This document shows positions 3,205 to 44,924 of a stretch of 64,000 bases of DNA, piece by piece. The stretch is from positions 35,731 through 99,730 of the IMG/VR virus record IMGVR_UViG_2706795806_000001; one strand, 5' to 3'. The translations under genes and the position numbers were made by a program. The stretch is from a virus. Taxonomy: Duplodnaviria > Caudoviricetes. Under the pieces are notes generated by a model. It saw only the letters and a list, made by a program, of their open reading frames with translations. It was not told the DNA's origin and searched no databases. Position 1 is the stretch's first letter, and every line of letters begins with the position of its first letter.

Positions 3205-3729
3205 ATGGATGTTGTAAAATATTTAACACTACAGGAAGTGGCTCATGAAGACAAGGCTCTGAGATTACCTAGCTCATTTGGCTTTGTAGTACACCCAGAC
3301 GGACGTTTGTTTCATCTGGTACGTCAGTATTATCATGGTGTAGCAATAGCCCTCCTAGAGCCTAAGAAGGCTGAAGAGTATGGTATTGGTTTACCTCTTC
3401 GTGATTATGTTGATGTCTATAAGTATCAAGACTTCATGTTTGATGTTGCAGATGATCTTGGGTATATTACTGTTGGTCTCGGTATGTTTAATCGCATCTC
3501 TTATGATCGTAGTCAGAATATTTCAAAAGAACAGGTTGACACTATGAAGAAATACTTCTACAATACAGGAATGTTAGAGGATACATTCATGACAAATCAG
3601 GGTGATGTATCTGGAGCAGAAGCTGTAAGAAACCTTGATGCACAGTATGCCAAAATTAAATTGAATGGTGGCTTGCACAAAGAGGTTGATGATGTTAAAC
3701 TAATTGAACCAGATGAATTATTTAATTAA
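3205..3729 (+). CDS. hypothetical protein
   Basis: ATG at 3205 after GGAGG; 174 aa. Confidence 0.8.
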   Translation: MDVVKYLTLQEVAHEDKALRLPSSFGFVVHPDGRLFHLVRQYYHGVAIALLEPKKAEEYGIGLPLRDYVDVYKYQDFMFDVADDLGYITVGLGMFNRISYDRSQNISKEQVDTMKKYFYNTGMLEDTFMTNQGDVSGAEAVRNLDAQYAKIKLNGGLHKEVDDVKLIEPDELFN

Positions 3730-3740
3730 GGTGAAATGTT

Positions 3741-4226
3741 ATGATGTTACCACACGGAATTTTCTTTAAACCAAATGCTAAATTTCTAAACACTATGGCA
3801 AGTGAGTATAAGGATGTTGGAATCCTTGAAGCTGGTTCTGGTGTTGGTCATGTGCTAAAGGTTGTTAAGGAGTATGGGAAGAATTACGGTATCTCTGCAA
3901 TGAGTAATATTCGTGGTTTTGATATTCATCGTCGAACTGAGTATGAAGTACCTGAGTTTGAAATCTTTATGGCAGATGCACTAGATTTAACTGTGTACCA
4001 TCAAAGACTTCAGGTTCTTGTGTGTCGTCCTGATCATGGTGGTTGGGTTAGTGAGCTACTGGAACAATTCCTATTAGGTGAAAAAGTGTGTAAGCGTTTC
4101 ATTTATGTTGGGAAGCCTGAGAATATTGAAATTGATTTTGATGAAGATCAATTACTGCATGTACATAAAAAGGTAGAGGGTGTTGGTGAAGACAACGAAA
4201 CAATGTTGGTTTGGGAGATTGTGTAA
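3741..4226 (+). CDS. putative class I SAM-dependent methyltransferase-like protein
   Basis: ILEAGSGVG motif I followed by RGFDI acidic motif II and ADAL. Confidence 0.55.
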   Translation: MMLPHGIFFKPNAKFLNTMASEYKDVGILEAGSGVGHVLKVVKEYGKNYGISAMSNIRGFDIHRRTEYEVPEFEIFMADALDLTVYHQRLQVLVCRPDHGGWVSELLEQFLLGEKVCKRFIYVGKPENIEIDFDEDQLLHVHKKVEGVGEDNETMLVWEIV

Positions 4227-7283: not shown

Positions 7284-7541
7284 ATGTCACACGGCAACAT
7301 GACTATGGAACAAGCTAAAGAACTTCAGAGACAATATGGAGGTCGGGTAATCTCAACAGGTTTGACTGGAGAACAACGTGTAACTCATCACAAGCCGACA
7401 GATAGAATGGAAGACTTTAACTTAGCGTTGCACAGAAATGGTGATCACAATGCAAACATACAAGCAACTGTAGTTGTAATGAAAAGCCGTAAGACTCGTA
7501 CAGGTGTTGAGTCTCATGTGATCCAGAAGTTTGAGCTGTAG
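7284..7541 (+). CDS. hypothetical protein
   Basis: AAGGAG RBS; last gene of the rightward run. Confidence 0.75.
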   Translation: MSHGNMTMEQAKELQRQYGGRVISTGLTGEQRVTHHKPTDRMEDFNLALHRNGDHNANIQATVVVMKSRKTRTGVESHVIQKFEL

Positions 7542-7620
7542 ATATTCCCAGATATTCCTGAGAATCTGAACAAAAAGGCAAAACTTTTTGAAAGTTTTTG
7601 GATTATTTAGGGTGGTGTGG

Positions 7621-7650
7621 TTGACATAGGTTAGCCATCCACTATATAAT
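7621..7650 (+). promoter_or_regulatory. sigma70 promoter upstream of a candidate ncRNA
   Basis: TTGACA-N18-TATAAT with no convincing downstream ORF. Confidence 0.6.
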
Positions 7651-7690
7651 AGAACTCTTATGTAGTTTTAAACTTTAATTATTTACACAT

Positions 7691-7852
7691 CAATCAGTCG
7701 TAGGAGCATTTGCTATGAAGTTTTAATCTTTGGCTATATAGGTGGGAAGCTTCAGAAATAACTGGAACAAAGTGTCTAAGTGTTTCACCATCTTGATCGA
7801 GTTCATTGCATGGCTTCTGCTTTGAACAAGGAAGGCTTTCTATTGCTGATTG
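7691..7852 (+). ncRNA. candidate structured ncRNA (four-way junction)
   Basis: Closing stem CAATCAG/CTGATTG plus three internal hairpins with G-U pairs on the + strand. Confidence 0.5.
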
Positions 7853-8262
7853 TCTTCCTCCTTTCCTCTCTTCCACTCTCCCTGAAAAATTTTTGCAAGG
7901 CATGATGGATTTGAAATCTGAAACCATATACACCGTTTGTAGGTTTTTACAATCTTCACAAGAAATTACAATTAATCTGGAAGCAATTCATAAAAGTTAG
8001 AGAATTGCAATAGGAAATTACAAAAGATAATTATTTATTTTAATTGATTTTTATTTTTATTGTGGTATTCACACACGCCCACATATTAGAAAGAACAATA
8101 AACCTTGTCCGTTTCAGTGATTGCTATTATCTCAAGCCTTAAAAACATTGCATTAAAAAAGATTTCCTGAAAATTTTCCGAAAATTTAACATACAATTAT
8201 TTTAAAAAACAAAGACTTAACCAAAAGTTAAATATTATTTTTAATTATTTTTATCTAAGGTA

Positions 8263-8322
8263 TTGCAAAAATAATTTATTCCTATAGAATGGCATCCATA
8301 CCAAGCAAACAACTTAAAAGGT
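8263..8322 (+). promoter_or_regulatory. early promoter + conserved leader
   Basis: TTGCAA-N16-TAGAAT then ATACCAAGCAAACAACTTAAAAGG. Confidence 0.8.
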
Positions 8323-8329
8323 TATTAAC

Positions 8330-9007
8330 ATGAAAGCATTTAACTTTAAACATTCTTTTGAATATGACAACGACTTAGCACGTATTTACTTTGAAGACTT
8401 TGAACGTGAAACGTCTTTACTTCGATATGGTGTACGTGATTTTGATTATTATGTATTGTTCGCCACTGCTGAAGACAAGGACAAGAAATACTATAAAGTC
8501 TCTTCATTGCGTAAAATGAAGAAAACAGACCTATATGATCTTTGTGTGAACTTCGATCTAGTGGCATACTGGGAAGATGAAAAAGAGTATTTAAAGAAAG
8601 ATTTTATTGAAATGTTATTGACAATAGATAATGAGGCGTTCTATAATGGTCACTATGAAAACGTACCTTATCAAGATTTAGATAGCGATTTTGTAATTCG
8701 TGGGAACTGTCAAGGTGACTATGTAAAAATTAAATTAGTTGGAAAGTTTGAACCATACATGACAAGTCAGTATCTTGAACAAGTATTCTTTCAAACGCCT
8801 ATCTATTGCCGTGTATCTGTATTAGATGGCAACTATGAAGAGATTGAAGGACAAGACGAATTATATATTGATTCTTTTGTCAAAGACTTATATAATTTTG
8901 ACAAGTCGGAAGTGTTGGAAATTGTAAAGGATCAATATAAAGATGAATTATTTTTTATTGACCTATGCAACTATGTAGAAAACTGTTTTGCAAATGAACC
9001 AAAGTAA
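8330..9007 (+). CDS. acidic early protein, function unknown
   Basis: 225 aa, D/E/Y-rich, RGNCQGDY motif. Confidence 0.85.
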   Translation: MKAFNFKHSFEYDNDLARIYFEDFERETSLLRYGVRDFDYYVLFATAEDKDKKYYKVSSLRKMKKTDLYDLCVNFDLVAYWEDEKEYLKKDFIEMLLTIDNEAFYNGHYENVPYQDLDSDFVIRGNCQGDYVKIKLVGKFEPYMTSQYLEQVFFQTPIYCRVSVLDGNYEEIEGQDELYIDSFVKDLYNFDKSEVLEIVKDQYKDELFFIDLCNYVENCFANEPK

Positions 9008-10254: not shown

Positions 10255-10313
10255 TTGACTAGGGTATCAAAAAGCTTTAATATTCTAGTCATACCAAGCA
10301 AACAACGAAAGGA
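10255..10313 (+). promoter_or_regulatory. early promoter + leader
   Basis: TTGACT-N17-TAATAT then ATACCAAGCAAACAACGAAAGG. Confidence 0.8.
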
Positions 10314-10320
10314 AATAAAC

Positions 10321-10743
10321 ATGAACATTTTAAACGCTGTAAACACTGAATTAAACCTTGCTATGATCGACTTTAGTGCTGTATTTACTTGCACACAAAT
10401 TACAGATAAATGGGAGCATGACAACTTTGTATGTGTGTTTAAAAACCGTGCTACAGGTGAAGCTTTCCAATTTGACTATAAAATGGGTATCGGGCATCGT
10501 CATAAGTTAGGTCGTATCATGTTGCCTAAAGTTGATAGTGTTTTGCATTCACTCATCATGGATTCATACAGTACAGATGAATGCTTTTCTGATTGGTGCG
10601 CTAACTATGGCTATGATGATGATTCAATCAAAGCTAAGGGCATCTATGAGGCTTGCATTGAGAATGCTAAGAAATTACAAGGCGTATTTTCAAAGCGTGA
10701 AAAGTCCCTTGAAAATATCAAAGAGCTTTTAGAAGATTTTTAA
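10321..10743 (+). CDS. hypothetical early protein
   Basis: AAAGGA RBS; FSDWCANYGYDDDSIKA motif. Confidence 0.85.
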   Translation: MNILNAVNTELNLAMIDFSAVFTCTQITDKWEHDNFVCVFKNRATGEAFQFDYKMGIGHRHKLGRIMLPKVDSVLHSLIMDSYSTDECFSDWCANYGYDDDSIKAKGIYEACIENAKKLQGVFSKREKSLENIKELLEDF

Positions 10744-42888: not shown

Positions 42889-43365
42889 ATGGCACTAACA
42901 GAGATTCAAAAATTAAGGCGAGATGCTGGAGACAATGATCCAGATTTTCAATATCTCACGGATGAAGACTATCAACAATTGATGGATGACATCCCAAGTA
43001 AAAGAAAACTAAGTAAGCACATTGACATGCTTATTTTAAATATGAAAGCCAATGACATCCATGAGAGATCAGGTCAAGAAGAGCGTTGGGGAAACCAACT
43101 ATTCGAGAATGGATTGAAGATGGTCAAGTTGAAGTGGAAAGACCCAGCATTTAGTGGCACTCATGGACTACCTTCTTTTGGTGGTACATCTCGTGAGGAG
43201 ATGTCAGAGCTTGCTACAGACCCAGATCGTGTTCCTGATACATTCTATAAGGGAGACAACAAAGGTCGTGCTGAGTGGCAAGAGAGGCGCATTTACAGGT
43301 ACTGTGGTCGTGCCTTTGAGTCTGGTTCTTGTCTGCTGTGGAATTGTTATGGCTTTCAAGCATAA
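42889..43365 (+). CDS. head-tail adaptor-like protein
   Basis: LRRDAGD...YLTDEDY motif; position. Confidence 0.7.
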   Translation: MALTEIQKLRRDAGDNDPDFQYLTDEDYQQLMDDIPSKRKLSKHIDMLILNMKANDIHERSGQEERWGNQLFENGLKMVKLKWKDPAFSGTHGLPSFGGTSREEMSELATDPDRVPDTFYKGDNKGRAEWQERRIYRYCGRAFESGSCLLWNCYGFQA

Positions 43366-43876
43366 TTTCAAAATGGATTTATCTGGACTCAAGAAGCTCC
43401 AGAGAGATTTAAAGAAGATTGACAAGACTGAGATTGAATGGGGATGGATTAATGGTAAGGCTTACAACAAAGCTGATATCAATAAACGTGGTGGAATACC
43501 TTATGCACTCATTGCCATCAATAACGAATTTGGTGGATATGCAAAAGATATGAGAACAAACAAATATGTTTATATCCCATCTCGACCATACTTTCAACAG
43601 TCAACCAAATCTTCAGTCTCTTATGCAAAGAAAGAGGTTGCAGATGTATTTCGTTTGGTTATGGCTGGTGGTGATTATAAAGCCCACTTACAAGCTATTG
43701 CAAACGCTCAGGTTGACATTCTCAAGAAGAGTATTGCACAAAACAATATGACCCCACTTCACCCTAAGACAGTGGCTATTAAAGATAGTTCTAAGCAATG
43801 GGATGATACAGGTCAAATGATCAAGAATATTACAGCTAAGGTTGTGTACAAACGATCTGACTACAAAGGAGATTAA
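43349..43876 (+). CDS. neck/tail-completion protein
   Basis: NEFG...IPSRPYF...DTGQM motifs. Confidence 0.75.
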   Translation: MAFKHNFKMDLSGLKKLQRDLKKIDKTEIEWGWINGKAYNKADINKRGGIPYALIAINNEFGGYAKDMRTNKYVYIPSRPYFQQSTKSSVSYAKKEVADVFRLVMAGGDYKAHLQAIANAQVDILKKSIAQNNMTPLHPKTVAIKDSSKQWDDTGQMIKNITAKVVYKRSDYKGD

Positions 43877-43878
43877 AG

Positions 43879-44253
43879 ATGAGAAATCGAATGAAACTTG
43901 GTAGAGAAAAATATGACGTTGTTCGATCAGCCCCAGCAAAATTGGTGAATGGTCTTTGGCAGAAAGCTTCTGTTGAGACTGTTCAGATCAGAGCTAATAT
44001 TCAAGGTGGATTGTTTTGGAACTCTGTCAAGTTTTCTGACTCAGGTGACATCTCTAAACAAGCTATTTCAATCCGAAGTGATGAGCCGTTATATATGGCA
44101 AATGACAAAAAGCAAGGTGATCTTGTTTTCTTTGGTGGTAATTATTGGGAAGTTAGAGATTGTCGAATTTACAAGAATTTAAAAAGAACTCGTCATTGGG
44201 AAGCAATGGCAGTTTTGATTGACGGATCGAAAGTTCCAAGAGAGGGAGAATGA
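43879..44253 (+). CDS. head-closure protein
   Basis: Position and size. Confidence 0.65.
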   Translation: MRNRMKLGREKYDVVRSAPAKLVNGLWQKASVETVQIRANIQGGLFWNSVKFSDSGDISKQAISIRSDEPLYMANDKKQGDLVFFGGNYWEVRDCRIYKNLKRTRHWEAMAVLIDGSKVPREGE

Positions 44254-44924
44254 TTGAAACAGAGATTTGCGCTATCTTGGGACAACACAAGATGTATGGA
44301 AGTAAGGATAGAATCCTCTCTGAAAAATATCAAATAATTGTTGATAATCAAAATGGTGTACACCCTATGGATGAGACATTCTTCCTGATTGGCTTGATTG
44401 ATGAATACAATTTAGGTACAGCTACCAAGACCCTTACTACAAGAGAGATTGTGGAAGGCACGGATGGGAAGATTGGTATCTGGAAGGTTAATCAACCAAA
44501 GGCATACGAAGTGAGGATCAGCATTCAAGGTGATAAGAGTCTAAATGGTCGTGGAGATGGTGTAGGGGATATCTTAGAGCTATTGAAGCTTCAGATGGAC
44601 TTACCAAGCATGAGGCGTAGATTCGCTAATGCCTTCACTATTACACACAATGAAGGAGAGGATGATGAATGGGATGAGGTTGTCAAAGGTTATTCCTATG
44701 AGATTGATCCTCAAACAATCACCCTCCCAATCAAATTAAATACTGACCAATACATTCGGTATTCTTTTAAAGTCACTTTCAAAACAAACATTGCCTTCGA
44801 TGTTGAACAAGAAGTTATGGATGGTGTGAAAGTTGAAGGGAAGTTCATTGATGACAGTAAGAATGTCATTGAAGAATATTCAGAAACGGTAGATAAAAAT
44901 ACCATCATAAACAGTAAAGGATAA
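44250..44924 (+). CDS. tail terminator/neck protein
   Basis: Directly before the sheath gene. Confidence 0.6.
   Translation: MIETEICAILGQHKMYGSKDRILSEKYQIIVDNQNGVHPMDETFFLIGLIDEYNLGTATKTLTTREIVEGTDGKIGIWKVNQPKAYEVRISIQGDKSLNGRGDGVGDILELLKLQMDLPSMRRRFANAFTITHNEGEDDEWDEVVKGYSYEIDPQTITLPIKLNTDQYIRYSFKVTFKTNIAFDVEQEVMDGVKVEGKFIDDSKNVIEEYSETVDKNTIINSKG

Follow-up and report, generated by a model that had tools for sequence, protein, structure and literature searches.

Which product, if any, is made from the annotation-free gap onto which a consensus promoter opens at position 7621 of this phage DNA? The window, by which we mean the whole 64-kb stretch analysed, is part of a 99,730-bp virus record, whose coordinates equal those of the window plus 35,730. 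At this offset the open reading frames (ORFs) ORF074 (43,014–43,271) and ORF075 (44,060–44,737) as well as promoter P07 of Acinetobacter phage vB_AbaM_Acibel004 match the window exactly, and the published Acibel004 genome has a length of 99,730 bp (PMC4128745); the window is Acibel004. P07 was published as a predicted promoter at 43345–43390 with a 46-nt sequence identical to that of the window (Table S3A, PMC4128745), therefore the promoter had already been predicted in 2014. Between ORF074 and ORF075 the 2014 annotation contains no ORF, terminator or RNA (PMC4128745; terminators in Table S3B), leaving a gap of 789 nt (7542–8329). An earlier, sequence-only reading had placed an unannotated structured non-coding RNA (ncRNA) with its own promoter in this gap. 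We report here that the gap holds a small RNA element, a conserved, promoter-driven, non-coding and structured unit on the plus strand. We consider it probable that this is the Acibel004 copy of an early small RNA gene common to the Acibel004/phiAbaA1/Saclayvirus group and built around a conserved pseudoknotted core. In a proposed subfamily that also includes phiAbaA1 and Saclayvirus, Acibel004 is an outlier and alone makes up a proposed genus; its nucleotide similarity to the other two is about 30% (PMC8878043). For its large terminase the amino-acid identity is 74%.

The promoter and the transcript predicted from it are located as follows.

7621–7650, plus strand: sigma-70-type promoter TTGACA-N18-TATAAT, 12 of 12 consensus positions, identical to the published P07

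7656–7885, plus strand: predicted transcript of about 230 nt, based on the promoter and on homology to the Saclayvirus promoter-to-terminator unit of about 220–225 nt

The -10 box places the predicted RNA start to within about 2 nt, and the 3' end given is a putative one. Perfect TTGACA-N18-TATAAT sites occur twice in the 64-kb window compared to 0.17 expected, and the one at 7621–7650 had been recognised in the sequence-only reading. The second lies at 8618–8647 inside ORF075 (8330–9007), at about 44,348 of the record, and is not in the published promoter list. In an alignment of 16 fetched Saclayvirus-type sequences and the window (17 sequences) the -35 hexamer TTGACA is invariant (17/17) and the -10 box is kept at a spacing of 17–18 nt, whereas the spacer sequences vary. 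The element strand is plus, as set by promoter and terminator. The plus strand also folds better over the whole transcript than the minus strand (-49.1 vs -39.8 kcal/mol; z-score of the minus strand +0.84), in agreement with the earlier remark that the G-U pairs fit the plus strand.

The unit is carried by 21 Saclayvirus-type records, in which it is 85–100% identical to that of phage Aci05 and mostly unannotated. In every Saclayvirus record examined a syntenic ORF-free gap of about 740 nt contains promoter, RNA and terminator. The gap of Aci05 is laid out with a TTGACA promoter, UAGGAG plus AUG and two islands, AUAGGUG.GA and CAUCUUGAU.GAG, followed by a clean intrinsic terminator. We built a covariance model (R1) from the 16 Saclayvirus sequences only, excluding the window, and searched both strands of the 64 kb (128 kb searched). 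The sole significant match was 7698–7841 on the plus strand with 31.3 bits and an E-value of 9.6e-7, the next-best match in the window having an E-value of 1.9; a sequence-only model scores the element at 19.6 bits, a value not strictly comparable with the 31.3 bits of R1. Megablast against other phage records gave no match, and the more sensitive blastn search ('distant' mode) linked only 7992–8080 of the window to Saclayviruses (eight records). The islands are about 55–65% identical between the window and Saclayviruses, compared to 23–41% elsewhere, and the element is single-copy in the Acibel004 genome. phiAbaA1 and Aci05 share 97–100% identity in the core and 51% in the 5' leader, the similarity of their genomes being about 60% (PMC8878043). 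At the level of sequence the RNA unit is under much stronger constraint than its surroundings.

We also searched more widely for the element. IMG/VR motif scans for more homologues returned only the two known isolates and chance matches, two metagenome scans gave 0 matches and 1 chance match in a coding region, and a scan of GTDB genomes gave 0 matches; the comparison therefore rests on two deep lineages. Loci reached via the neighbour protein at 10255–10743 belong to unrelated phages of 56% GC without the element, and a terminase relative on a 39.7-kb fragment does not hold it. An Infernal scan against Rfam 15, the check proposed together with the sequence-only reading, detected only tRNAs in the window at the gathering threshold and no match in the element, with nothing in 7650–7890 at E≤10. 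ARAGORN found no tRNA or tmRNA in the element. In the literature we found no paper linking Acibel004 or Saclayvirus phages with small RNAs (sRNAs) or describing this RNA.

The features conserved between the two lineages within the predicted transcript are the following.

7701–7706, plus strand: Shine-Dalgarno-like UAGGAG, invariant in 17/17 sequences

7715–7726, plus strand: mini-ORF AUG AAG UUU UAA by direct reading; AUG UGA or AUG UAA (start-stop) in the homologues

7738–7751, plus strand: conserved island AUAGGUGGGAAGCU, defined by the alignment, containing the 5' strand of helix S2 (7740–7745) and the 5' strand of the pseudoknot (7746–7751)

7755–7786, plus strand: two-tier P3 hairpin, the minimum-energy fold of the segment, with loop ACAAAGUG

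7788–7800, plus strand: conserved island CCAUCUUGAUCGA, defined by the alignment, containing the 3' strand of S2 (7788–7793)

7801–7827, plus strand: P4 hairpin GUUCA/UGAAC of the predicted fold, its loop displaying GGCUUC (7812–7817), which is complementary to 7746–7751

The spacer between UAGGAG and AUG is 8 nt long in 17/17 sequences. The aligned AUG opens 1 codon in Saclayviruses vs 3 codons in the window, and the stop is preserved through a UGA to UAA change in Liucustia and Ab121. Predictions of Shine-Dalgarno accessibility gave no consistent pattern across the homologues. The islands AUAGGUG.GA (7738–7747) and CAUCUUGAU.GAG (7789–7800) keep an identical 41-nt spacing in the window and in Saclayviruses.

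The fold of the core is suggested by changes on both sides of its helices. S2 (7740–7745/7788–7793) reads AGGUGU/GCAUCU in Saclayviruses and AGGUGG/CCAUCU in the window, the innermost pair being U-G or U-A in the former and G-C in the latter. The outer stem of P3, GAAAUA/UGUUUC (7755–7760/7781–7786), shows a 1-nt slip against the homologues. In its inner stem UGGA/UCUA (7763–7766/7775–7778) replaces GUAG/CUAU of the Saclayviruses, so that 4/4 pairs are changed and all are complementary, and the G-U pair of the Saclayviruses also occurs there as G-C and A-U variants. The 8-nt loop of this inner stem is identical at 7/8 bases between window and Saclayviruses. On the 17-sequence alignment 5/14 pairs of S2 and P3 are changed on both sides and still paired, a number reached by 0/500 shuffles and by none of the slid controls, which gave at most 1. 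P4 is retained even though its loop is unrelated in sequence and in length (17 nt in the window, 11 nt in Saclayviruses); in the folds predicted for the window GGCUUC lies in a 7-nt apical loop. The pseudoknot joins the six bases directly 3' of S2 (7746–7751) to the P4 loop (7812–7817), in addition to S2 and P4 themselves. Three complementary versions of it occur: GACACU/AGUGUC, GACUCU/AGAGUC (a double transversion seen in five records) and, in the window, GAAGCU/GGCUUC, for which the chance of the complementarity is 0.007–0.05. Compensatory changes in the alignment support S2, the inner stem of P3 and the pseudoknot.

Nothing in the unit is conserved as protein. The two lineages have different longest plus-strand frames at the invariant CAUCUUGAU island, where the minus frame reads DQD in the window vs SRC in Saclayviruses. 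Judged from these frames neither strand encodes a conserved protein, and the published annotation likewise leaves 7542–8329 empty, as expected from the earlier statement that no credible ORF is present. The structured ncRNA proposed from the sequence alone is supported by the 21 related records, the match to a structure model free of the window, the non-coding character and the compensatory changes.

The motifs named in the sequence-only reading are present in the window at the places given, but the architecture drawn from them is right only in part. It had described a four-way junction of P1 to P4, closed by P1, with a pyrimidine-rich tail. P4 (GTTCA 7801–7805 with TGAAC 7823–7827) is conserved in the homologues. 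In P3, TGGAACA (7763–7769) can pair with TGTTTCA (7781–7787), but in the fold of 7688–7856 alone this register has a probability of 0.008 and the two-tier hairpin forms instead. P2, TGAAGTTTT (7716–7724) with GGAAGCTTCA (7745–7754), pairs in the window whereas homologues have only a weak counterpart of 3–4 bp. This P2-like helix, which includes the AUG (UGUG/UACG in Saclayviruses, UGAAG/CUUCA in the window), may be an alternative conformer or a chance pairing since it crosses S2 and overlaps a pseudoknot strand. CAATCAG (7691–7697) of P1 is indeed complementary to CTGATTG (7846–7852), and TAGGAGC (7701–7707) extends it by pairing with GCTTTCTA (7835–7842); no complementary segments are found at the homologous positions of P1 in the 16 homologues. 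The junction is the minimum-energy fold of 7688–7856 folded alone (z-score -1.8), with probabilities above 0.9 for P1, its extension, P2 and P4, but it is replaced in the transcript 7655–7885 (z-score -0.35).

Parts in which the lineages differ are the following.

7691–7697, plus strand: 5' strand of P1, pairing with 7846–7852, lineage-specific

7829–7859, plus strand: terminal hairpin AGGAAGGC/GUCUUCCU of 8 bp with a 15-nt loop, part of the minimum-energy structure of the complete transcript, located where Saclayviruses have their terminator

7853–7882, plus strand: pyrimidine tract containing CCUCC, lineage-specific, made up of the 3' half of the terminal hairpin and a C-rich, G-free tail

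The intrinsic terminator of Saclayviruses, GCCCAUG-CUUUGU-CGUGGGC-UUUUUU, lies about 225 nt from the start and has a 7-bp GC-rich stem followed by U6. No intrinsic terminator is predicted after the element in the window and none is listed there in Table S3B (PMC4128745). The terminal hairpin with its C/U tail was not scored as a terminator, falling outside the canonical terminator type of the family; the C-rich, G-free tail may form a weak terminator tail or a Rho-loading tract. The pyrimidine tract, with CCTCC at 7857, is present where the sequence-only reading had placed it, and its uninterrupted run of 22 nt (7853–7874) is the longest in the 64 kb. Both CCUCC and the tract are absent from all 16 Saclayvirus homologues aligned. 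The 5' leader is only 28% identical and near unrelated between the lineages, being about 20 nt shorter in the window. A leader hairpin covaries within Saclayviruses (AGGUU/AACCU vs UGGCA/UGCCA) and is unrecognisable in the window. Folding of the whole transcript (7655–7885) pairs the AUAUAGGUGGG region with the 5' leader and forms the hairpin 7829–7836/7852–7859, which buries the start of the pyrimidine tract.

From these features we propose the following course. Host RNA polymerase with sigma-70 would start at 7621–7650 and make an RNA of about 200–230 nt that encodes no protein and whose well-spaced ribosome-binding site (RBS), UAGGAG-N8-AUG, would open only a mini-ORF of 1–3 codons. The RNA would fold into a compact core in which S2 (7740–45/7788–93) encloses P3 and 7746–51 pairs with the P4 loop at 7812–17, resulting in a pseudoknot. 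The 3' hairpin would act as a canonical terminator in Saclayviruses and be present as a weaker hairpin with C/U tract in Acibel004. Released early in infection as a stand-alone molecule, the RNA may act via the invariant islands AUAGGUG.GA and CAUCUUGAU.GAG, which could bind a host or phage factor or another RNA. The mini-ORF might load a ribosome that protects or refolds the RNA, and in Acibel004 the AUG region (7716–7724) and the P4 loop would compete for bases 7746–7751. An early stand-alone regulatory or decoy RNA is the most likely function.

Several observations weigh against this proposal. With only two deep lineages available, all cross-lineage covariation rests on one sequence, and within Saclayviruses a double change is seen at one pair only. 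One outer P3 pair is A-C in CRR8/TAC1 and one P4 pair is C-A in KIMZ24. S2, the pseudoknot and the P2-like helix cannot be nested jointly, so that some of them may be alternatives or chance, and the folding energy of the whole transcript (7655–7885) is no better than that of shuffles, as the z-score given above indicates. The window has no recognisable terminator, and the RNA could be the 5' part of a longer early transcript. The literature yielded no transcript data for Acibel004, phiAbaA1 or Saclayvirus phages. No target or partner was found among the complements of the islands in the window or among the eight early leaders: complements of both islands occur nowhere else in the window, and duplexes of the RNA with the eight published conserved early leaders were no better than shuffles. 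These leaders share the conserved motif AAGCAAACAACTTAAAAGG (R01–R08) published for Acibel004 (PMC4128745); the standardised early leader noticed in the window is this published motif.

As the main rival we see a leader that acts in cis on the early region, in place of a free RNA; we regard it as distinctly less probable. Such a leader might be an attenuator, in which ribosome loading on the mini-ORF chooses between P1 with its extension and the terminal hairpin or in which Rho loads on the C-rich tract, or a put-like antiterminator, in which the RNA modifies the transcribing polymerase for readthrough of downstream terminators as in phage HK022. In the put and nut layouts of HK022 and lambda a structured RNA is placed between a strong promoter and a terminator, and the element has a structured RNA directly between the two. 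The 3' strand of P1 sits in the loop of the terminal hairpin, therefore P1 and the terminal hairpin are mutually exclusive. In the window no terminator separates the element from ORF075, and at the edge of the early gene block no other transcription unit comes before the element (sequence and PMC4128745). Against a leader function, ORF075 (P08, R01 at 43,987–44,051) and nearly every early gene have their own promoter and leader, so that a 680-nt leader is not needed. The Saclayvirus terminator is strong and invariant, and no competing anti-terminator sequence was found there. P1 is not conserved, and an ORF of 1 codon cannot sense an amino acid.

We give a low probability to a more specific version of the stand-alone RNA, a ribosome-engaging early RNA. 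Here the invariant start-stop site would load a host ribosome onto the pseudoknotted core, and the core islands would hold or modify the ribosome, a translation factor or an RNA-decay factor. If true, the phages of the proposed subfamily would share a conserved host-takeover RNA of a new class, and the competition for 7746–7751 would make ribosome loading the switch in Acibel004.

Somewhat less probable again is that the conserved islands are DNA sites, such as regulator operators or a site for replication or recombination, within a large control region, any transcript being incidental. The islands are invariant even where pairing alone would permit change, and the gap has other conserved non-coding blocks and repeats outside the RNA (7539–7600, 7876–7924 and 7992–8080). 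Promoter and terminator nevertheless bracket exactly this stretch in 21 records, and protein-binding DNA would not be expected to show compensatory double changes. Nor does the element mark a genome end: in Aci05, whose direct terminal repeats have been mapped, it is located about 7.4 kb inside these repeats, so a genome terminus was rejected, and a role in packaging, also suggested in the sequence-only reading, is supported by nothing we found. The record of UOL-KIMZ-24 (PV067941.1) starts just before the RNA gene, but this start is arbitrary because its first 127 nt equal its last 127 nt, an assembler overlap rather than a terminal repeat.

The P1-closed four-way junction with an exposed pyrimidine/CCUCC tail pairing to Shine-Dalgarno sequences of host or phage mRNAs appears unlikely to a slightly greater degree. 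In its favour, the 7 bp of P1 pair perfectly and the junction has minimum energy when 7688–7856 is folded alone; the tail combines the longest pyrimidine run of the window with CCUCC. P1 and the tract occur in 0/16 of the aligned homologues, and a complementary 7-mer between two flanks of about 40 nt is expected about 1 in 10 times by our own estimate. Folding of the whole transcript leaves the tract half-buried in the terminal hairpin and yields a minimum-energy structure other than the junction. Pairing to the eight conserved early leaders was not significant. Because the homologues carry a terminator and no CCUCC at the position of the tail, RBS titration cannot be the conserved function of the family. 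The sequence-only reading thus found the gene, and was wrong about its conserved architecture and functional tail.

Least of all do we expect a small protein, be it from a 79-codon minus-strand ORF (7694–7933), a short plus-strand ORF or the tripeptide MKF, for although pipelines have in some cases (Rocket, KissB, phi1_092033 and HB01) called ORFs on the minus strand of this stretch and the minus-strand ORFs share a weak BLASTP similarity (K.IMP.KNF...RHF, E = 0.005), the called ORFs disagree in start, stop and length (55–98 aa), most annotators call none, both the minus and the plus frames diverge at the invariant island as described, the mini-ORF is a bare start-stop in Saclayviruses, and the BLASTP match stems from conserved nucleotide blocks, its 'RHF' being non-homologous copies of the AAAGUGUCU motif.

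Two specific functions were also considered and rejected. A CsrA sponge was dismissed on the count of conserved GGA motifs, of which the two lineages share only one. A mimic of a CRISPR repeat was considered as a lead because 'GUUCAU...AGAAA' recalls type I-F repeats; the hairpin architecture differs and the CRISPR-repeat models of Rfam gave no match.

The genes flanking the gap have been replaced and differ between Acibel004 and Saclayviruses. Directly after the gap the two lineages carry non-homologous genes (8330–9007 in the window vs 3287–3886 of the Aci05 locus). ORF075 belongs to phrog_25822, with relatives of 27–35% identity in Pasteurella, Shewanella and Vibrio phages, and the Saclayvirus gene belongs to phrog_5162 and is named 'RNA polymerase binding protein' in CP14. 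Directly upstream of the gap in Aci05, Aci05_142 (locus 1983–2549) matches HNH endonuclease families (phrog_953, E = 2e-24). An HNH-type gene is absent from this place in Acibel004 and other Saclayviruses, and Aci05_142 is probably a mobile insertion adjoining the RNA gene.

Further non-coding blocks were observed in the gap. Just upstream of the promoter, 7540–7559 contains two tandem 10-bp AGATATTCC(C/T) repeats and a degenerate third copy, followed at about 7581–7600 by an 8-bp inverted repeat AAAACTTT/AAAGTTTT. This block (7539–7600) may represent an array of operators or UP elements; in Saclayviruses its place is taken by GATATT repeats spaced about 11 bp apart and by TTTGAAAGTTTT units. 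After the RNA, 7876–7924 is conserved with Saclayviruses and consists of the palindromic GAAAAATTTTT, then GGCATGATG and then TTTGAAA. Its counterpart in Aci05 overlaps a weak minus-strand promoter-like sequence TTTTCA-17-TAAAAT; none was scored in the window. The AT-rich stretch 7992–8080 has the only blastn-level identity of the gap to Saclayviruses (76–79%) and contains a promoter-like TTGATT-N16-TATTCA and a conserved GCGCCC.

In summary, the comparison indicates that the Acibel004 element is a divergent member of an undescribed phage ncRNA family, outside the genus Saclayvirus. It is the only homologue divergent enough to tell the parts that matter from those that do not, and its main value is to define the conserved core of the family: promoter, start-stop site, both islands and the pseudoknot core of S2, P3 and P4 appear to matter, and the 5' leader, P1 and the pyrimidine tail appear not to matter. 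The homologue set can serve as a seed alignment for an RNA family. Acibel004 and Saclayviruses are in use, or have been proposed, as therapeutic agents against multidrug-resistant Acinetobacter baumannii, and the annotations of these phages miss a gene conserved more strictly than neighbouring protein genes. Should ribosomes or another host machine prove to be its target, the RNA would join the very few functionally defined ncRNAs of lytic phages.

Compared to known systems, the tail of the Acibel004 RNA resembles the sRNAs RsaE and RoxS, in which C-rich seeds pair with Shine-Dalgarno regions, as UCC and CCUCC of the tail could likewise pair with purine-rich RBSs. The tract differs from these seeds in not being conserved in the family and in being partly paired in the predicted fold, and no target was found for it. 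The start-stop site recalls the lambda bar minigenes and bacterial start-stop sites, which combine a strong Shine-Dalgarno sequence at optimal spacing with an AUG and a stop either at once or after 1–2 sense codons. The likeness to lambda bar lies in this sequence signature alone, together with a putatively strong early promoter; the Acibel004 site is embedded in a conserved structured RNA, that of lambda bar in an mRNA leader.

For virulent Pseudomonas phages, ncRNA candidates including sRNA1 and sRNA2 of PAK_P3 have been obtained by ONT-cappable-seq and RNA-seq (PMC10914365). These are likewise short, genus-conserved, non-coding RNAs of lytic phages that are bounded by a start site and a terminator and have no assigned function. 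PAK_P3 belongs to a phage family related to the Acibel004/Saclayvirus group (PMC12846349), but shares no sequence or structure homology with the element, its best match to R1 having 11 bits and E = 0.37. In PAK_P3 the sRNAs are late, neighbour tRNAs and the terminase gene and are processed from 3' untranslated regions, whereas the Acibel004 unit opens the early block with a consensus promoter of its own. The closest counterpart is the unpublished Saclayvirus unit of about 220 nt, which is like the Acibel004 copy in position, promoter type, UAGGAG-N8-AUG mini-ORF and both islands and shares the helices S2, P3, P4 and the pseudoknot with it. In comparison to this unit the Acibel004 copy has an extra P1 complementarity, and the canonical terminator is replaced by a weaker hairpin with a 30-nt pyrimidine tract.

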